From assembly GCA_965246875.1 (NCBI GenBank), contig CBDFFU010000006.1:133664-197663 (forward strand): 64,000 nucleotides of DNA. The letters run 5' to 3'. The position numbers and the translations under genes are program-made. A model generated the notes under the pieces. That model ran no database searches. It was not told the origin of the DNA and saw only the letters and a program-made list of their open reading frames with translations. The DNA is from Alphaproteobacteria bacterium. GTDB taxonomy: Bacteria > Pseudomonadota > Alphaproteobacteria > Micavibrionales > SZUA-601. Positions 41,662 through 62,151 of the stretch are shown one piece after another (positions within the stretch are counted from its first letter, which is position 1; the number at the start of each line of letters is the position of its first letter).

Positions 41662-41738
41662 GACTCCATAGCTCAATCGGATAGAGCAACTGCCTTCTAA
41701 GCAGTAGGTTGCAGGTTCGATTCCTGCTGGGGTCGCCA
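41662..41738 (+). tRNA. tRNA-Arg(TCT)
   Basis: 77 nt; acceptor GACTCCA/TGGGGTC, D arm, anticodon stem ACTGC-CTTCTAA-GCAGT, GGTTCGATTCC T arm, encoded CCA. Confidence 0.97.
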
Positions 41739-51432: not shown

Positions 51433-52119
51433 TTATTGGCTGACCCACAGAATACGGGCGATCCAGGCCACATCCTTGCGCGGCAACGGGATATCATCGA
51501 AATGATCGTTCAGCGATTTCAGTGTGATTTGCGTCGGGCTGAGACGCGCCAGATGTTTGGCCATCACTTCGCCTTTTTTCGTGCGCACCACAACACGATC
51601 ACCACGGCGCAATTGCGTGGGGTTTGGTGAGACGATCAGGATATCGCCATCACGATACAACGGTTCCATCGAATCACCGGCGACTTCCAATGCGTAAATT
51701 GAGGGGTCATCCAGTTTGGGAAACTCGATGGTATCCCAGCCAGCGCCTGCCGGGTAACCGGCATCGTCGAAAAACCCAGCCTGGCCCGCTTGCGCGCAGC
51801 CGATAATCGGAATGTGGCGCAACGTGCGCGACCCGGTATCGCTTTGTTCACCGCGAATAAAACCAGCAATCGTGTCCAGCGACTCACCCGTAATGTCCAG
51901 AATTTTCGACAGCGATTCGGTCGATGGCCAACGGGGGCGGCCTTCCGGTGTCGCACGTTTGCTGGGGTTAAACGATGTCGGGTCAAGGCCCGCGCGGCGC
52001 GCCAATCCAGAGGCCGACAAACCGTGGCTTTCGGCCAGCAAATCAATCGCGCGCCAGATATCGTCATGATGCAAACCCTGTTGCGCAACCGTTTCATCTT
52101 TGTCTTTGCGTTTTGCCAC
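51433..52119 (-). CDS. HTH + peptidase S24 (LexA/CI-like) transcriptional repressor, RogA-like
   Basis: IWRAIDLLAESHGLSASGLARRAGLDPTSFNPSKR...RPRWPSTESLSKIL; S24 domain with VAGDSMEP (Ser) and VMAKHL (Lys). Confidence 0.88.
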   Translation of the reverse strand: MAKRKDKDETVAQQGLHHDDIWRAIDLLAESHGLSASGLARRAGLDPTSFNPSKRATPEGRPRWPSTESLSKILDITGESLDTIAGFIRGEQSDTGSRTLRHIPIIGCAQAGQAGFFDDAGYPAGAGWDTIEFPKLDDPSIYALEVAGDSMEPLYRDGDILIVSPNPTQLRRGDRVVVRTKKGEVMAKHLARLSPTQITLKSLNDHFDDIPLPRKDVAWIARILWVSQ

Positions 52120-52155
52120 GTTGTCTCTCCCATTGGCACATCGTCACAACTTAAA

Positions 52156-52238
52156 TAGGAATATAATCTTTTTTATGCTTGACGTAGGAATAAATTCATA
52201 GTAGAAAGGATTATCTTCATAATATAGGACGGCTGTCA
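52156..52238. promoter_or_regulatory. Four operator-like boxes over the divergent promoter region
   Basis: GGAA-TATA-ATCT (52158), GGAA-TAAA-TTCA (52187), GGAT-TATC-TTCA (52208), GGAC-GGCT-GTCA (52227); TTGACG -35 candidate at 52179. Confidence 0.55.
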
Positions 52239-52293
52239 GGAAATCAAGCGAAAATTTCATCACAGCCGCCTGCCAATCACGGGGGAATCGACC

Positions 52294-52734
52294 ATGCGGA
52301 TGACAAAAATCAAGGTGCCAATGGTAGCTGCACAACACGCGAACCAACTGGGTGAGCCACGCGAAGCGTGGGTGTGTTTTACCGGCGAAACGGAACTGTG
52401 GTGGCTGCATGCTCTGAAAAAGGGCTTTCGCCATTGTTTCGTCATCGCGCGCAACGCCGACCATTGGCTGGCCATAGACCCGCTCTCGCCACATTTGGAG
52501 ATTACCATCCTGCCGATTCCACAGGCGTTCGATTTGCCACGCTGGCTGGAAAAAAATGGGGTGACCCTGTCGCGGGCCGCAATTCGCCGGGACCAGCATA
52601 AATCGGCCCCGCTGTTTTTGTGTTCCTGCGTCGAGGTCATCAAACGCTTTCTCGGCATTCACAACCGCTCAATTGTCACGCCGCACCAACTGTATCAATT
52701 CCTGATCCAGCAAAACGCGTTGCTGCCCAGCTAA
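52294..52734 (+). CDS. Phage-module protein, putative permuted papain-like (His before Cys) peptidase
   Basis: GFRHCFV ... CSCVEVIKRFLG ... TPHQLY; GGGGGA RBS; first gene of the portal operon. Confidence 0.55.
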   Translation: MRMTKIKVPMVAAQHANQLGEPREAWVCFTGETELWWLHALKKGFRHCFVIARNADHWLAIDPLSPHLEITILPIPQAFDLPRWLEKNGVTLSRAAIRRDQHKSAPLFLCSCVEVIKRFLGIHNRSIVTPHQLYQFLIQQNALLPS

Positions 52735-52761
52735 TTTCACGCCACTTTTATGAGGTTCATC

Positions 52762-53064
52762 ATGGCCAAAATTGTCTCTGCCGTCCCAAAACTTTTAACT
52801 GCCACGCTTGGTGGCCTGGCCAGTAACCCGCCAAAACCGGTGGCAATGACGCCGGCTGTCGCCACGACCGTCACGCCTGCAACGGCGGAGATAAAGTCAA
52901 ACACTGATATTGCCGGACCGGATTTGTCTGATGATCTTGCCAAGGATCTGGGCGGCATTGACGCGCGCAGCAAAGGCCGCGTCGGCACGATCACCACATC
53001 GTTTCGTGGCGTGTTGAATGACACCCACAACGCGCTGCCACGCCGCACCTTGTTGGGAGAATAA
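52762..53064 (+). CDS. Small podoviral pre-portal virion protein (T7 gp7.3-like position)
   Basis: Low-complexity Ala/Thr/Pro N-terminus; C-terminal KGRVGTITTSFRGVL...RRTLLGE; directly before the portal. Confidence 0.6.
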   Translation: MAKIVSAVPKLLTATLGGLASNPPKPVAMTPAVATTVTPATAEIKSNTDIAGPDLSDDLAKDLGGIDARSKGRVGTITTSFRGVLNDTHNALPRRTLLGE

Positions 53065-53065
53065 A

Positions 53066-54535
53066 ATGGAACCATCACATGTCATGGATGCAACGCGTTT
53101 AAGTGCGTTGTATCACGATGCGAAAACGGCGCGTGAACCGTGGGACAGTCTGTGGCAGGATTGTTATGATTACGCCCTGCCGACGCGCACAACCCAAAAT
53201 GGTTTGCAACGCAGCTGGCGGCAGGCCTATCAGCATTTATACGATGCAACCGCCGCTGATGCGGTTGATCAATTAGCGGCATGTTTGTTGTCGCAACTGG
53301 TGCCGCCCTGGTCACCGTGGGTCGAAATCGCGGCGGGTCCGGCATTAACGGATGACGAAAAAACGCGTATCGCGCCAACGCTGCAAACTGTCAACCGCAT
53401 GCTGCACGATCAATTGCGGCACAGTAATTTTACCGTAGAATTGCATCAGGCGTTGCTTGATATGGTGACGATCGGCACGGCCTGCTTGTGGGTCGGACGC
53501 AATGTGCCGGGACAACTCAGCGCCTTGAATTTTCAAACCGTACCGCTTAATCAATTCTTTGTGCTGGGCCATGATTTGCAGCATTTGTTTATGCCGTTTC
53601 ATTGGACAGTCAGCAAAGTGCGGCAAACCTTTTCAGGTGTTAATGTGCCCGAGACACTGGCGGAAACAGATATGATCGAGGGTGTCTATGCCGTCATCCG
53701 CGAAGAACATGCCTGCCATCAGTGTGTCATCATGAATCCATCCGCCACACCGGAGATTATCTGGCAGGAGGTGTCAGAATTTTCACCGTTCATGCCATTC
53801 CGCTGGCAAAAAACTGCCGGGGAGATATATGGCCGCTCCCCGGTGATGAAAGCCTTGCCCGACATCAAAACGGCCAACAAAGTGGTTGAGCTGGTGTTAA
53901 AAAATGCATCAATTGCGGTCACCGGGATTTGGCAGGCGGATGATGACGGTGTGCTGAATCCCGCCAACATCAAATTGACGCCAGGCACGATTATTCCCAA
54001 AGCCGTTGGCTCGTCCGGTTTGACGCCACTGAAAATGCCTGGAAATTTTGATCTGTCGCAATTGGTGCTGAACGATTTGCGCCAGCGGATTAAACAGGCG
54101 TTACTGGCTGACCGCTTGGGTGCAACGCCGGGCAAACGCATGACGGCGACAGAAATTCTGGAGCGCAATGCCGATATGGTGCGTGCACTCAGCGCCGTTT
54201 ACAACCGGCTGCAAAGCGAATTGCTGGTGCCACTGGTCACACAGATTATATCGGTATTGAAACAGCGCGGCGATTGTCCGGACATCATGCTGGACGGTCA
54301 ATATTTCACGCTGAATTTTCTCTCGCCTTTGGGCCGCGCGCAACAACAGGATGATGTGCAAGCGACATTAAACTGGCTGATGACGGCACAGCAATTTGGT
54401 GCCGAGGCGTTATCCAACATCAATGTGCCACACATGGTGTCGTGGCTTGGCCAGCAACTGGGTGTGCCGGCGCATCTGCTGACGCCGCCTGTACCCGTTT
54501 CACTACCAGCGGAGATCATCCATGAAACAGCCTGA
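53066..54535 (+). CDS. Podovirus-type portal / head-tail connector protein
   Basis: HLYDATA..AVDQLA, ELHQALLDMVTIGTAC, RWQKTAGEIYGRSPVMKALPDIKTAN, MTATEILER, LQSELLVPL (T7 gp8-like connector motifs). Confidence 0.88.
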   Translation: MEPSHVMDATRLSALYHDAKTAREPWDSLWQDCYDYALPTRTTQNGLQRSWRQAYQHLYDATAADAVDQLAACLLSQLVPPWSPWVEIAAGPALTDDEKTRIAPTLQTVNRMLHDQLRHSNFTVELHQALLDMVTIGTACLWVGRNVPGQLSALNFQTVPLNQFFVLGHDLQHLFMPFHWTVSKVRQTFSGVNVPETLAETDMIEGVYAVIREEHACHQCVIMNPSATPEIIWQEVSEFSPFMPFRWQKTAGEIYGRSPVMKALPDIKTANKVVELVLKNASIAVTGIWQADDDGVLNPANIKLTPGTIIPKAVGSSGLTPLKMPGNFDLSQLVLNDLRQRIKQALLADRLGATPGKRMTATEILERNADMVRALSAVYNRLQSELLVPLVTQIISVLKQRGDCPDIMLDGQYFTLNFLSPLGRAQQQDDVQATLNWLMTAQQFGAEALSNINVPHMVSWLGQQLGVPAHLLTPPVPVSLPAEIIHETA

Positions 54536-54818
54536 GTCACACCAAATGGAACAACGATCAGCGTTGCGGAAATTCCTGTTCGGCAATCTGCCGCCGGACG
54601 ATATCAGTAAAGCCTATGCACGCTGTTTCAACGGCCGTGACGGGCAGACAGTGCTGGAGCATCTGCACCAGATCACGCTGTTCCGCATCACTGATCCGAC
54701 CATGGACCCGACGGCGTTACGCCAGCTGGAAGGCCAACGCCAATTGGTGTTGTTCATGTGCCAGCAAATCGCCAAGGCCAGCCATGGTGTGCCCACACCA
54801 GCAAAAGGACAGGCATGA
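54522..54818 (+). CDS. Bbp19-like phage protein
   Basis: YARCFNGRDGQTVLEHL...LRQLEGQRQLVLFM, typical of the small gene after BPP-1-like portals. Confidence 0.7.
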   Translation: MKQPESHQMEQRSALRKFLFGNLPPDDISKAYARCFNGRDGQTVLEHLHQITLFRITDPTMDPTALRQLEGQRQLVLFMCQQIAKASHGVPTPAKGQA

Positions 54819-54854
54819 CACATTTTTAATTCACAACCAACGGGGGATACGACC

Positions 54855-54959
54855 ATGACAGACAACCAGATACGCCGCACGGAAACGATGCTGCGCACCT
54901 TTCTTTCCCACATCTTCTTTCACAATGGAGACCTGATATGCAAGAAGACAATCTCTTGA
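54855..54959 (+). CDS. Possible 34-aa small ORF
   Basis: GGGGGA RBS; MTDNQIRRTETMLRTFLSHIFFHNGDLICKKTIS*; overlaps the scaffold start. Confidence 0.3.
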   Translation: MTDNQIRRTETMLRTFLSHIFFHNGDLICKKTIS

Positions 54960-55639
54960 TTGCCACACACGATGCAGCAGACGTTGCACCGAAAAACGCG
55001 TCTGCTAAATTGACTGTTCCTGAAAAATTCTGGGACAAGGAGAAACAGGAAGTCCGCATCGACGCCTTGTTAAAATCCTATCTTGAGCTGGAGAAGAAAT
55101 TCTCGGCGAATGAAAAGGCAAAACCGGCCGTGCCAGACACGCCGCGTGACTATAGCGTCAAACTGGAACATGATTTGTTTACAACCGACGACGAAATCAA
55201 CGATCGTTTGCATCAAGCCGGCTTTACCGATACGCAAGTGCAATTGGTCTATGATCTGGCTACCGAAAAAATGGTGCCGCTGATCATTGAGTTGGCGCGC
55301 GATTTTGAAGCCGACCGTGAGATCGAAAAACTGGTCAAGACATTCGGCGGCATGGATAAATGGCGCGCAGTGTCCAAACAGCTTTTGGCCTATGGCCAGA
55401 AACATCTGCCAGCCGATGTCGTCAACGGTTTGTCTGGCTCCTATGAAGGCGTCATGGCGTTATACCGCATGATGCAAAGCGGTGCTAATCCAAACATGCA
55501 GGATAATGTGACAATTGATGGTGCCGTCGACGAAAAAGGCCTGAAAAAGATGATGCAGGACCCGAAATACTGGCGCGACCGCGATGCCGAGATGGTGAAG
55601 AAGGTAACCGCCGGGTTCAAGCAAATTTTTAATAATTAG
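54938..55639 (+). CDS. Putative podoviral capsid scaffolding protein
   Basis: PEKFWD...DALLKSYLELEKK; acidic helical core; C-terminal MMQDPKYWRDRD...VKKV...F. Confidence 0.7.
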   Translation: MQEDNLLIATHDAADVAPKNASAKLTVPEKFWDKEKQEVRIDALLKSYLELEKKFSANEKAKPAVPDTPRDYSVKLEHDLFTTDDEINDRLHQAGFTDTQVQLVYDLATEKMVPLIIELARDFEADREIEKLVKTFGGMDKWRAVSKQLLAYGQKHLPADVVNGLSGSYEGVMALYRMMQSGANPNMQDNVTIDGAVDEKGLKKMMQDPKYWRDRDAEMVKKVTAGFKQIFNN

Positions 55640-55648
55640 GAAGCAGTC

Positions 55649-55692
55649 GTCATCCCAGATTTTACGACTAGCAAAATCTGGGATGACATTTT
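55649..55692. terminator. Strong bidirectional hairpin closing the phage module
   Basis: Perfect 15-bp stem GTCATCCCAGATTTT / AAAATCTGGGATGAC, 9-nt loop, followed by ATTTTT; between convergent genes. Confidence 0.75.
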
Positions 55693-55699
55693 TCGATTT

Positions 55700-58048: not shown

Positions 58049-59269
58049 ATGTCACTTGTTGCAGAACGTATCAAACGGTTGAAACCGTCGGCCACTCTGG
58101 CTATTTCCGCCAAGGCCCGTCAACTTAAAGCTGAAGGTAAGCCCGTTATCTCGCTATCCGCCGGTGAGCCGGATTTCGATACACCAGACAACATTAAACA
58201 GGCAGCGATCACCGCCATTCAAAATGGTGACACGAAATACACCGACGTTGGCGGTACACCGGCCTTGAAAAAGGCCGTGATCGCGAAATTTCAGCGTGAA
58301 AACAACCTGACTTACACAGCCGAACAGATCATCATCGGCGTCGGTGCCAAGCATATTTTGTTTAATGCATTTCTGGCCAGTCTTAACGCGGGTGATGAAG
58401 TGATTATTCCGGCACCCTATTGGGTCTCTTATCCCGAAATGGTGTTGGTGGCCGATGGTACGCCCGTAATTGTCACCTGTGACGAGGCCAGCCATTTTAA
58501 ACTGACACCACAGCAATTGGACGCGGCCATTACACCAAAAACCAAATGGCTGATATTGAATTCACCCAGCAATCCAACAGGGGCCTTATACAGCGCGGCA
58601 GAGTTGAAAGCCTTGGCCGATGTATTAGCGAAACATCAGCATGTCTATGTGATGACCGATGACATGTATGAGCATTTGCGTTTTGACGGGCAGGGTTATG
58701 CGACCATCGCCGAGGTTGCACCGGAATTATTTGACCGCACCTTGACCATCAACGGTGTGTCGAAGTCGTATGCCATGACCGGCTGGCGCATCGGTTTTGC
58801 CGGCGGGCCTGTCGAGTTGATCAAAGCCATGACACTGATGCAAAGCCAAAGCACGACGAATGCGACATCAATTGCGCAGGCTGCCGCCGTTGAAGCTTTG
58901 AACGGCCCGCAAGACAAAGTCGAAGAGATGCGCCAGGCCTATGAACGCCGCCGCAACACCATGGCCGATGGCATCAATGCCTGTGAGGGCCTGACCGTCG
59001 CACGCCCGGCCGGTGCGTTCTATTTGTACGTCAATTGCAATGGCATTTTGGACAAAGCAACAGTGTCAGGTAAAATCCTGACCACCGAAGCCGATGTCTG
59101 CGCCTACCTGCTGGATGACTATCACTTGGCCGTTGTGCCCGGTGCAGCGTTTGGCTTATCACCTTACTTCCGCGTCTATTTCGCAATCAGCGATGACATG
59201 ATCACGGAGAGCTGCCAGCGTTTGCAGGACGCCTGTAACAGTCTCAAAAATGCGTCCGCTGCCGCGTAA
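58049..59269 (+). CDS. aspC: Aspartate aminotransferase (class I/II PLP enzyme)
   Basis: LSAGEPDFDTP, NSPSNPTGA, DDMYEH, NGVSKSYAMTGWRIG; start set at MSLVAERIKRL. Confidence 0.92.
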   Translation: MSLVAERIKRLKPSATLAISAKARQLKAEGKPVISLSAGEPDFDTPDNIKQAAITAIQNGDTKYTDVGGTPALKKAVIAKFQRENNLTYTAEQIIIGVGAKHILFNAFLASLNAGDEVIIPAPYWVSYPEMVLVADGTPVIVTCDEASHFKLTPQQLDAAITPKTKWLILNSPSNPTGALYSAAELKALADVLAKHQHVYVMTDDMYEHLRFDGQGYATIAEVAPELFDRTLTINGVSKSYAMTGWRIGFAGGPVELIKAMTLMQSQSTTNATSIAQAAAVEALNGPQDKVEEMRQAYERRRNTMADGINACEGLTVARPAGAFYLYVNCNGILDKATVSGKILTTEADVCAYLLDDYHLAVVPGAAFGLSPYFRVYFAISDDMITESCQRLQDACNSLKNASAAA

Positions 59270-59292
59270 TATTATTATTGCATAATATTTAA

Positions 59293-59320
59293 ATGTCCCT
59301 ATGATGAGGGACGTTTTTTT
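59293..59320 (+). terminator. Rho-independent terminator after aspC
   Basis: GTCCCT-ATGATG-AGGGAC followed by GTTTTTTT. Confidence 0.75.
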
Positions 59321-60527
59321 ATTGTGAGATAGATTATGATTTATAATTCAGATGCGGATCAACATGATGACGATCCATATAAAAACGATGAACTAATTGT
59401 AAATGTCAAAAAAAATGGCATGAGTTTGAAATTTGATTGGAAATCGTTTGGCACAGAATTGAATAATAAACTAGAAGACATACCATTTGCTGCTGAAAAG
59501 TTAGACTATCTGATAGCTGTCAATGATGCTGTTGGGTACATCAAACCGATTATAGAAGTTACTATCCCAATTATGATGTCTTTATATGACGACTTTGTAA
59601 GTATAGAGGATAAAGTTAGGTGTGCGGGCTTTGTTTGCAGTTATTCGGCGAATAAAAATTTTCGTCAGCAAGGCTTAAACATACTAGAAGAAAATTACGA
59701 TTCATGTTTCGACACTGGATTTAGAATTACGGCTTTAACAAATCTGCTTAATGACGACCGTCCAAGACACAGGACACAGACAGAACATTATAACAAACAA
59801 GTTGATTATTATAATGAATGGACTACTTTGATCGAGGAAGAGGATGAGCCTAAAGATAAAGCGTTTTCGGCTTATCTCCTGCTTGAGCCTATGAAGCTCT
59901 GTAATATTTTTAAAGCACCTTTGTTAAGTATGATTATTAATAATCTCGATTTTTGTGAAGACTTGGATAATAAAATAGACATCATTACGTTTTGCAATCG
60001 AGAGTTTGAAAATAAGTCTGGAAAAAAAGGCTATATAAACTCAAAAGCAAACAAAACCTTTTTTCCAACTGCATCTAATTTTGATTGGGAGAGCCGGTTT
60101 CTGGATGCTGGATTTCAATTGATGCACAAAACAGGTTATAATGCAGCTATAAAATTTATGTGTTCTCGCGTTGCTGAATGCGACCATCAAGACTGGGTTC
60201 ATAGGGCATATGGTATATTCGACTTTTTATGTGATACATTTGCAGAAAAAGAATATTCACCTTTAGCAGATCTTTTGAGTGTTGAAAAAGGATTTATAAG
60301 CAAATCTGTCCAACAACCTTTTGATTTAATAAAGCAAAGCGACACGTATCTCAATTGGGCCAAAAATTTAAAAAAGAAAGCGCACAAAGATGGTCTAATT
60401 AGTGAATTAAATGCGTTTGAAAATTTACGGTCTAGCTACCAGCATGTGAAGGACATCTCCAAACAAGAAGCTGAAAATAATTCATTAGTTTTGCAAGCTT
60501 CGCTCACAACGTTTAAATATAATTTTT

Positions 60528-61231
60528 GGGGCTGGTATAGATTAGCTGAGTTTAGCCCATAGCTTGAGAGTTGTCAGCTGGCTTTTGGGTGAGCCGTAAT
60601 TGAAGCGGAAGACACATTCCTGAAGGAAGTAAGCGAAGTTCTGTTTCGGGATGCCGTTGTATTTGCGCAAAACTCGTTTTGATTGATTCCAGAAGTTTTC
60701 AATCCCATTGATGTGATTAGTTTTATCAGCGAACAGTTCGCTGTGATTGATGCGATAATGTTTAAACTCAGAGACATCTAGCACGTTATACGAACGATAG
60801 CTGTCCGTGTAGACGATGCTATCAGGCTGGATTTTACGGCGTATAACCGGCATGAGCGTCCGGCTTTTTGTATCGTCGACCATGGCGGCATAGACTTTAC
60901 CACCCCGCTTGAGCAGGCCGAAAACAGGAACCTTGCCGGCAGCACCTCGGCCTCGCTTGCCCTTTCGGACACCGCCAAAGTAACTCTCGTCAAGCTCAAT
61001 CTCGCCGTCGAATGGCTCTTCATCGATCATTTTATCGCTGATCAGGACACGCAATTTATGATAAAACAAGTGGGCCGTATGATAGTTGATACCGACCAGA
61101 TCAGCAGCTGTTCGGGCCGTTACCTGGCCGACGAACATCTCCAGCAGCTTTAACTGAATTTTATGCGATAATTTACAACGATTTAATCCCATCACACCAG
61201 CATAAATTAGATCCTAATCTATACCAGCCCC
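60528..61231 (-). mobile_element. IS1595-family insertion sequence (IS1016-like), 704 bp
   Basis: Perfect 18-bp TIRs GGGGCTGGTATAGATTAG (60528-60545) / CTAATCTATACCAGCCCC (61214-61231); 8-bp TSD TAATTTTT (60520-60527, 61232-61239). Confidence 0.95.
60542..61195 (-). CDS. IS1595-family DDE transposase
   Basis: IELDESYFGG, VYTDSYRSY, HINGIENFWNQSKR, LQECVFRFN. Confidence 0.93.
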   Translation of the reverse strand: MMGLNRCKLSHKIQLKLLEMFVGQVTARTAADLVGINYHTAHLFYHKLRVLISDKMIDEEPFDGEIELDESYFGGVRKGKRGRGAAGKVPVFGLLKRGGKVYAAMVDDTKSRTLMPVIRRKIQPDSIVYTDSYRSYNVLDVSEFKHYRINHSELFADKTNHINGIENFWNQSKRVLRKYNGIPKQNFAYFLQECVFRFNYGSPKSQLTTLKLWAKLS

Positions 61232-61665
61232 TAATTTTTTTTTAATGACAGCAATGACCGGGAAAATAAATTCAACAGAAGATGAATTCTTAAAAAGTAC
61301 CGAAAACAAAAAAAGCGATCGCGCCATGTTTGCTTATGGACGCGCAGAATTAGTTAAAAACGAGTTGATACACGAGCATCTTGTTGATCAGATTTCCTTG
61401 GTTACTGCGCAAAAACAGATAATTGATGATTCTATTCCATATCGCAAATGTGAAACGACTGATTCAAAACAAAAAGCCTTAATAAGGTTGGAAAAAATTG
61501 AAAATCTAGATTTTAGTCCTTACCCATTTGCGCATGCATCAAAGCTTACAATATCACAAGAATTTTCGGTTAAAGAATGGTTTGATGTAGATGATCATGA
61601 TAAAAGCTTGGTGTCATTTGCGGTGTTGCCTTTAAATCCCCGTTTGAATTAGAATTATTTAGCGA

Positions 61666-62151
61666 TCATGGGTCTATCAGTTTAATCTCAAAACTCACCT
61701 TATGCGGCTTGAATCCTGATTTGATAAACAACTCTTGCATCCGCGTGTTGGTGGCCAGGGTGCTGAAGGTCAGACGATCCAGGCCCTTTGCCGCAAAATG
61801 CTGTGCGGCGATGCGACCCATAGTTTTGAATGTATAAAAATTGCGATAGGCCGGTTTGATATAGGCGTCTGAAATTTCACCGACCTGGCCACAGCCGCTA
61901 TCCAGGCCGTCACTGTCGACGACCCAGCCGGTTAGAAAGCCGATGGCATTGTTTTTGTCATCAAGTGCTAATAAGGCAATGCCATTTTTGGCAGTGACAT
62001 TATCTTTCAGATACTGGAAACTGCCTTGGGAGATTTCTAAAAACGGTTTGCGTTCCGGGCGGATGGATTGTTCAAAGAGTTGCAGTTCTTTTGAAAGCTC
62101 GCGCAATTGGTTCCAATGTTGCTCGGTGTGAACCTGGAAAACAGCTGTCAT
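61666..62151 (-). CDS. GNAT family N-acetyltransferase
   Basis: AIGFL, EISDAYIKPAYRN, N.RMQELF.KSGF. Confidence 0.75.
   Translation of the reverse strand: MTAVFQVHTEQHWNQLRELSKELQLFEQSIRPERKPFLEISQGSFQYLKDNVTAKNGIALLALDDKNNAIGFLTGWVVDSDGLDSGCGQVGEISDAYIKPAYRNFYTFKTMGRIAAQHFAAKGLDRLTFSTLATNTRMQELFIKSGFKPHKVSFEIKLIDP

Follow-up and report, generated by a model that had tools for sequence, protein, structure and literature searches.

Head gene operon of a putative domesticated T7-like podovirus particle system in a Micavibrionales genome

The head operon and the scattered particle loci

The window analyzed here is a stretch of 64,000 nucleotides (contig C6, positions 133664 to 197663) from the genome of an alphaproteobacterium of the order Micavibrionales (2.18 Mb in 11 contigs; approximately 50% G+C content). 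Five co-oriented, intact open reading frames (ORFs) on its plus strand span positions 52294 to 55639 and include genes for a T7-type portal and a T7-type scaffold protein (Table 1). This module, which together with related genes elsewhere is called the element below, is divergent from an S24 repressor gene, and its 3' end is marked by a hairpin facing the convergent gene of a class A penicillin-binding protein (PBP1A). Core genes flank it on both sides (mutS, dut, ubiE, and lysS upstream; the PBP1A gene and an aminotransferase gene downstream), and, on the basis of Pfam and PHROG annotation, neither the module nor its surroundings contain an integrase or replication gene. An intact, co-oriented head module between core genes, free of such functions, was what a preliminary description made from the sequence alone had claimed. 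That description had also judged the composition to be host-like; indeed, the G+C content at third codon positions (GC3) of the module lies at the 47th to 74th percentile of the genome's ORFs, and its codon usage is typical for the genome. The portal gene is present in a single copy.

The rest of the particle genes are located elsewhere. In a relative of another genus of the same family (G006; complete genome), the same mutS-dut-ubiE-lysS flank precedes an element in which the S24 repressor gene and small genes are followed by the genes for the portal, the scaffold, three accessory proteins, a Phage_capsid_2 capsid, more proteins, and a GTA_holin_3TM-type holin. A tblastn search with the relatives' genes against the window's own genome located a second locus (i.e., C3:896.6-906.1 kb, minus strand), which carries capsid, tail, terminase, and lysis genes. 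The two loci are on different contigs and, given the distances to the contig ends, at least approximately 600 kb apart. Thus, the locus is truly split, as had been supposed in the preliminary description. Taken together, the gene order over loci 1 and 2 is that of the T7 late region. Host genes bound locus 2 at either end: an aldehyde dehydrogenase gene at one, and at the other an Opp transporter and an EAL-domain (c-di-GMP phosphodiesterase) gene (C3:895495-896577; L107:7495-8577), the latter directly downstream of the holin gene.

A 126-amino-acid (aa) PG_binding_1 peptidoglycan-binding protein is encoded at C6:14879-15304 behind a TTGACA box and a TAGGAATATTATCCTA operator. Homologs of this protein lie inside the cluster in several relatives, either in the gap between the scaffold and capsid genes or among the tail genes, which identifies C6:14879-15304 as a third scattered locus. 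Neither of the first two loci nor the related loci contained genes for RNA polymerase, replication, or gp14- to gp16-type core/ejection proteins (no genome-wide search was made).

Table 1. Features of the head operon (positions in the window) and of the second locus (contig C3)
Feature	Position	Strand	Evidence or remark
S24 repressor gene	51433..52119	-	Helix-turn-helix (HTH) + S24 (LexA/CI-like); PF00717 E=1e-23, phrog_4 transcriptional repressor E=4e-28
Operator/promoter region P1	52156..52200	.	Read directly
146-aa conserved protein, head operon gene 1	52294..52734	+	Without Pfam, PHROG, or NCBIfam match
104-aa small protein	52750..53064	+	Directly 5' of portal gene; without family match
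Portal (head-tail connector), T7 gp8 type, 505 aa	53018..54535	+	PF12236 Head-tail_con E=2e-105; phrog_332 E=2e-81
Bbp19-like small protein, 98 aa	54522..54818	+	PF25181 Bbp19 E=4e-14
Scaffold (T7 gp9-type capsid assembly protein), 233 aa	54938..55639	+	PF05396 E=7e-10
Terminal hairpin of head operon	55649..55695	.	15-bp perfect stem 55649-55663/55673-55687, 9-nt loop, T-rich tail; read directly
Major capsid	locus 2, C3	-	PF19821 E=8e-81
81-aa protein	locus 2, C3	-	phrog_18004
Tail tube A-like	locus 2, C3	-	phrog_394
Tail tube B-like	locus 2, C3	-	phrog_376 E=8e-144
222-aa protein	locus 2, C3	-	Next after tail tube B
Pectate-lyase-type tailspike	locus 2, C3	-	Frameshifted
123-aa protein	locus 2, C3	-	phrog_31793; candidate small terminase by position
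Large terminase (TerL), T7 type	locus 2, C3	-	NCBIfam NF033889 termin_lrg_T7 equivalog, 389 bits
93-aa protein	locus 2, C3	-	Between large terminase and endolysin
Endolysin	locus 2, C3	-	PF07486
Holin	locus 2, C3	-	PF11351, Pfam GTA_holin_3TM family

The labels given to the head genes in the preliminary description were retained in part. Its T7/BPP-1-type portal is of the T7 type (PF12236, the T7 terminase equivalog, and the T7 gene order), while no BPP-1 record was among the top 25 phage matches. The Bbp19-like and scaffold labels are both backed by Pfam families, whereas the gp7.3-like label of the 104-aa protein is purely positional (i.e., the position of T7 genes 6.7 and 7.3). This protein has no match in Pfam, PHROG, or NCBIfam; 30 related ORFs at the same position are weakly conserved, chiefly in the C-terminal approximately 35 residues. 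The Bbp19-like gene is kept between the portal and scaffold genes in most of the related loci, and scaffold orthologs (35 to 56% identical) were found in all of them.

The first gene of the operon encodes the 146-aa protein, whose orthologs (31 to 61% identical) hold the same position in nearly all related loci and share the invariant residues H47, C48, D62, C112, and E114. No match was obtained in Pfam, PHROGs, NCBIfam, or a PDB profile search. A Foldseek search with an AlphaFold model (predicted local distance difference test [pLDDT], 83) gave no significant PDB match, and the weak ones (E>0.5) were mostly to cysteine peptidases. The putative peptidase of the preliminary description is kept as a lead only, namely, a possible cysteine peptidase of a papain- or transglutaminase-like kind. 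A minus-strand ORF at 52144 to 52662 (172 aa) was rejected as an antisense shadow of this gene, the tblastn matches being in the plus frame.

Several further features of the window were recorded. The terminal hairpin was missed by the automated hairpin scan, which had a loop limit of 8 nt. The adjacent PBP was considered as the counterpart of the PBP upstream of the element in other Micavibrionales (i.e., a simple inversion), but this match was a single-linkage artifact, and the true ortholog lies at C6:292 kb. The sole tRNA gene of the window, tRNA-Arg(TCT) at 41662 to 41738, is 10 kb off and unconnected with the module. Positions 59000 to 61700 exhibit a low G+C content (0.35 to 0.43, versus approximately 0.50 for the genome) and carry a 408-aa ORF (59336 to 60562) without a Pfam match and several small ORFs; this stretch may be a horizontally acquired islet.

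The S24 repressor gene and a shared operator

The repressor keeps the S24 serine (in GDSMEP) and the downstream lysine, and it is 45 to 63% identical to the module-adjacent repressors of Micavibrio, Azospirillum, and Magnetospirillum loci. It is not the host LexA, since it scores 29.6 bits against a cutoff of 110.95 for TIGR00498. The true lexA is located at C6:646.6-647.3 kb (C6:646610) and has its own GTTC-N7-GTTC box; no such LexA box was found in P1 or in the promoter regions of the other two particle loci (P2, upstream of the capsid gene, and P3, at C6:14.88 kb).

Loci 1, 2, and 3 have in common a 16-bp palindrome (TAGGA-N6-TCCTA) that overlaps their promoters. At loci 1 and 2, the promoters consist of TTGAC(A/G) followed by TAGGAWTA repeats. 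P1 contains TAGGAATA half-sites at 52156 and 52185, the second of which starts the 16-mer TAGGAATAAATTCATA and is directly 3' of the TTGACG -35 box (52179 to 52184). P2 contains the 16-bp palindromes TAGGATATTATTCCTA and AGGAATATTATCCTA on both sides of a TTGACA box, and its arrangement (TTGACA-17-TAGGAT) is such that the predicted -10 box (TAGGAT) falls within the operator. When the whole genome was searched for TAGGAWWA occurring twice within 100 bp, pairs were found at only six places, namely, P1, P2, P3, and three other loci.

In related loci, a census of TAGGA-N6-TCCTA with one mismatch allowed found the motif in the intergenic region between the repressor gene and the first gene in 59 of 77 cases and at roughly 200 bp (median, 207 bp) 5' of the capsid gene in 29 of 56 cases; elsewhere in the relatives, the background was 0.02 sites per kb. 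The S24 protein is presumed to control every locus of the system as its master repressor. We infer that it binds the palindrome and undergoes RecA-dependent cleavage.

The unsplit cluster of relatives already has two operator-bearing units, one under P1 (the small genes to the scaffold gene) and one under P2 (the capsid gene to the holin gene), and a break between scaffold and capsid is therefore tolerated. In the genome analyzed here, the cluster breaks directly after the scaffold gene, where unsplit relatives have the capsid promoter and the capsid gene. The two-unit organization also fits with the recurrence of this break: many Azospirillum loci stop after the scaffold gene with their genes intact, and other genomes have insertions at the scaffold/capsid junction.

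The three other loci with half-site pairs are of two kinds. At C3:138064-139959, a TAGGATTA half-site pair and a TTGACA box precede genes for a 112-aa protein and a 506-aa SASA esterase (PF03629). The esterase could be an accessory fiber or receptor-destroying enzyme of the particle system; neither gene has a PHROG match or a homolog in the related loci, so their membership is unproven. The other two places (C3:980320-980400 and C6:719120-719200) are paralogous promoter regions of approximately 70 bp, each with a perfect TAGGAWTATATTCCTA palindrome and a second palindrome (ATGTTTCACGTGAAACAT), and they adjoin a DUF4142 lipoprotein gene and a phosphomannomutase gene. Both regions may be further members of the repressor regulon.

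Vertical inheritance and purifying selection

Within the order, 107 of 146 high-quality genomes, representing 48 of 61 genera, carry the portal gene (45 to 51% identity), which is almost always single copy, and approximately 20 Micavibrionales loci have an identical upstream host gene run. A scan with one genome per species gave at least 578 relatives. The best 80, which we inspected, belong to Micavibrio, Azospirillum, Niveispirillum, Magnetospirillum, Telmatospirillum, Terasakiella, Tagaea, and Rhodospirillales-type metagenome-assembled genomes (MAGs), and nearly all of these loci exhibit the same repressor-to-terminase architecture between host genes. IMG/VR contained 434 relatives; the best 80 of these were all contigs of 4 to 25 kb with the same architecture, which identifies them as copies of this element that were classified as proviruses. 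Across 94 related genomic loci and the best 80 IMG/VR loci, genes for an integrase, replication, a primase, or RNA polymerase were absent, as were att sites.

We also compared the portal with 50,697 sequenced phage records. The nearest phage portals were those of Pelagibacter phage Hodr (34% identity), Methylophilales phage MEP301 (32%), Yersinia YeP4-6 (28%), and HTVC019P-type pelagiphages (26 to 28%); the only closer record was an unannotated 5-kb fecal fragment (46%). Chromosomal portal homologs, in contrast, are 45 to 53% identical. Neither the sequenced phage records nor the best 80 of the 434 IMG/VR relatives included the genome of a replicating phage whose structural genes are close to those of the element.

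The element has descended with its hosts. For 21 loci with the shared upstream flank, we compared a concatenation of element genes (portal, scaffold, capsid, and tail tube B; 1618 columns) with one of host flank genes (1532 columns). The distances are strongly correlated (Mantel r=0.86, a value reached in none of 5000 permutations), the mean divergences are similar (0.33 for the element and 0.36 for the host flank), and 12 of 18 tree splits are common to both (random mean, 0.19; maximum, 3). The dN/dS ratios (i.e., nonsynonymous to synonymous substitution rates) in eight pairs were 0.03 to 0.15 for element genes and 0.02 to 0.14 for host neighbors, with similar dS values. In an 81-row portal tree, the Micavibrio, Azospirillaceae, and Magnetospirillum-type rows are grouped by label with the minimum possible number of label changes; the window portal forms a long branch with unusual composition. 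The element is thus inherited vertically and kept by purifying selection. Its presence in close relatives, its separation from free phages, the match between element and host trees, and the absence of relaxed selection are all in line with the domestication proposed in the preliminary description.

Individual loci deviate from the common architecture. In L016 (G014) and L036, the N-terminal part of the capsid runs straight into terminase sequence, the tail genes being deleted, which exemplifies lineage-specific decay of the element. G018 has a scaffold gene without an adjacent capsid gene, and G017 lacks the tailspike gene but keeps the rest. In the MAG OFTM66, the element occurs twice, on two contigs (L068 and L069) that share the host flank genes; this MAG more likely combines two related strains than contains a true duplication. 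The portal of L074, a contig labeled as uncultured Mycobacteriaceae, is within the Azospirillaceae clade, indicating that the contig is probably misbinned or mislabeled.

Interpretation and comparison with known systems

We interpret the five genes as the head-proximal operon of a domesticated, vertically inherited T7-like podovirus particle system that most likely resembles a gene transfer agent (GTA), and we assign this reading a probability of roughly 0.6. The content of the element, which is limited to particle, packaging, lysis, and repressor genes, together with its fixed position, cophylogeny, host-equal divergence, purifying selection, and host-like codons, excludes a recent or neutrally decaying prophage; in this respect, the gene content, cophylogeny, and selection support the preliminary description, which had preferred a domesticated, podovirus-derived system to a decaying prophage. 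The retention of portal, scaffold, capsid, and T7-type terminase favors a DNA-packaging particle over a tail-only or lysis-only device. Three features are those of a GTA: particle genes are present in the host chromosome without genes for self-replication, excision, or integration (at both loci and at the 94 related loci), inheritance is vertical and under purifying selection, and in this genome a particle could not carry its whole gene set, the separation of at least approximately 600 kb exceeding any known tailed-phage head of this type. The S24 repressor gene is accompanied by a shared operator at the three particle loci and three other loci.

On this reading, the inheritance of the kit would predate the divergence of the Micavibrio-like, Azospirillum-like, and Magnetospirillum-like groups, and the dedicated S24 repressor would keep all loci off. 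DNA damage, through RecA-stimulated self-cleavage, or another signal would remove the repressor in a few cells. Those cells would then build short-tailed heads, which the T7-type terminase would fill with DNA. This would most likely be host DNA packaged at random, because the loci for self-replication or excision are absent, and the holin and endolysin would release the particles for transfer.

Several observations weigh against the GTA-like reading. No gp15/gp16 ejection-protein homologs were seen at these loci, a point against delivery of DNA across the recipient envelope. In the unsplit relatives, a T=7 head could hold the whole 14-kb cluster, and the GTA criterion is blurred for them. The host tree underlying the cophylogeny was built from linked flanking genes rather than from unlinked markers. 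Loss is evidently tolerated, given that two families of the order are mostly without the element, that approximately 5 portal copies (approximately 5% of relatives) have one in-frame stop (including those of G012, G013, and G024), and that some relatives have deleted the tail genes or lost the capsid. Finally, a frameshift at an A5 run (C3:~900,500) divides the tailspike gene of this genome into frames of 500 and 212 aa, the proteins of relatives being approximately 675 aa long. An assembly error was rejected as the cause: the frameshift is identical in the contigs of the one public run holding it, although these probably derive from the same sample. Judged from the split frames, particles of this genome may adsorb poorly or not at all.

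Alternatively, the family as a whole may be domesticated but the copy in this genome on its way out, having been torn by rearrangement, with no functional particle and with intact genes that have merely not yet degraded. The reproduced frameshift, the long branch and unusual composition of the window portal, and the erosion in relatives (i.e., the capsid-TerL fusion of G014, the missing capsid beside the scaffold of G018, and the portal stops) agree with such a fate. However, the approximately 17 other genes of the system are all full length compared with their orthologs, and a promoter and operator are kept at both loci and at the third, which is unexpected for drifting fragments. Moreover, the same scaffold/capsid split occurs with intact genes in many Azospirillum genomes, and the loss of the tailspike in G017 has not entailed that of the rest. 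We therefore regard this explanation as unlikely, although it is the strongest competitor.

A domesticated particle might also serve a purpose other than transfer, either as a killing or lysis device (altruistic lysis that sets free DNA or enzymes, or a bacteriocin-like particle) or as a decoy or abortive-infection defense against related podoviruses. The conserved lysis cassette, pectate-lyase-type tailspike, and peptidoglycan-binding accessory proteins could be read in this way, as could the lack of gp15/gp16-like ejection proteins at the loci and the operator sites near non-particle genes (the SASA esterase, the DUF4142 protein, and the phosphomannomutase neighborhood), which would form part of the predicted regulon. 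A killing or lysis device, however, needs no DNA-packaging parts, which known tailocins lack, whereas the portal, scaffold, capsid, and T7-type large terminase are here under strong purifying selection; we consider such a function somewhat less probable than decay of the local copy. An ordinary mobile element (i.e., a temperate podovirus, whether still active or recently defective, or a satellite that depends on a helper and inserts repeatedly near the same genes) is very improbable, for although virus-prediction pipelines call these regions proviruses of approximately 13 to 25 kb, the repressor is CI-like, and some HTVC019P-type phages, which are among the portal's relatives, are temperate, the genomic and IMG/VR loci lack the mobility and replication genes listed above, the element and host trees agree and dS is equal, and the element is single copy per genome, has ameliorated codon usage, and is split over distant loci here.

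Beyond the domesticated, GTA-like particle system itself, we tentatively propose, with somewhat less than even confidence, that the element represents a second ancient GTA lineage of Alphaproteobacteria, derived from a T7-like podovirus, that has become fixed in deep-branching groups of the Micavibrio, Azospirillum, and Magnetospirillum types. In this proposal, a self-cleaving S24 repressor would control it via TAGGA-N6-TCCTA at two built-in promoters, repeated splitting would have occurred without loss of control, and it would be the source of the mitomycin-inducible particles of Azospirillum discussed below, which carry approximately 10 kb of DNA. So far, GTAs have been traced to only a few independent domestications. 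If correct, the proposal would add a new viriform family, would mean that podoviruses have been recruited as well as siphoviruses, and would provide culturable models (Azospirillum, Magnetospirillum, and Micavibrio aeruginosavorus) for studying particle function. The two repressor-controlled promoters would allow the scaffold/capsid split, here and in many Azospirillum genomes, with regulation in trans, and the operator would serve as a handle for locating further scattered parts of the system.

We found no published description of this cluster in the literature. Its structural genes resemble those of T7-supergroup podoviruses (HTVC019P-type phages, Hodr, and MEP301), with which it shares the T7-type terminase and the order portal, scaffold, capsid, tail tubes A and B, fiber/spike, and small and large terminase. 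However, those genomes are 35 to 40 kb, whereas the element is approximately 13 to 14 kb, chromosomally fixed, and vertically inherited, and its loci, unlike a T7-like phage, are without RNA polymerase, DNA polymerase, primase, integrase, and gp15/gp16 genes. Phage satellites such as phage-inducible chromosomal islands (PICIs) and capsid-forming PICIs differ in that the element has no integrase, att site, or replication initiator/primase and exhibits a fixed position and cophylogeny. The definition of a tailocin does not apply either, since the capsid, portal, scaffold, and large terminase genes are all present and conserved.

The element resembles RcGTA and CcGTA (i.e., the GTAs of the Rhodogtaviriformidae) in its phage-derived head, tail, packaging, and lysis genes, its lack of replication and integration functions, its ancient vertical inheritance under purifying selection, the distribution of its genes over several loci, and a holin of the Pfam GTA_holin_3TM family. 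It differs in that its portal (PF12236), scaffold (PF05396), tail tubes (phrog_394 and phrog_376), and terminase (NF033889) are all of the T7 type; no HK97-type portal, prohead protease, or tape measure gene was found in the element loci, which places it outside the RcGTA type. RcGTA-like large clusters have been reported to be absent from Rhodospirillales and Micavibrio (PMC5721377), the lineages in which the element lives. CcGTA is held off by RogA, an HTH + S24-like repressor without catalytic residues that acts via GafYZ; Rhodospirillales is one of the orders reported to be enriched in RogA homologs (PMC9632790). Compared by description, the repressor of the element shares the HTH + S24 domain plan with RogA but keeps the catalytic serine and lysine, adjoins the structural genes, and probably acts directly on their promoters.

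FpGTA of Faecalibacterium prausnitzii has been described as a GTA-like system with a probable podovirus-like morphology, two loci, and a holin and endolysin (PMC12946183, 2026). By its description, it is similar to the element in being GTA-like and in having two loci and the same lysis functions. Its host is a Firmicute, and it is documented by packaged host DNA and proteomics (PMC12946183), whereas the element is known from its genes. Closer to the hosts of the element, mitomycin C-induced particles with approximately 10 kb of DNA, suspected to be GTAs, have been described for Azospirillum lipoferum and Azospirillum sp. B510 (Boyer et al. 2008, as summarized in PMC3899980). According to that summary, the genes behind these particles were never firmly assigned, and the authors pointed to HK97-type regions (PMC3899980). 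Azospirillum genomes carry the element and its S24 repressor gene, and a DNA-damage-inducible particle containing random host DNA is the product to be expected from them; the element is therefore a candidate source of the Azospirillum particles.

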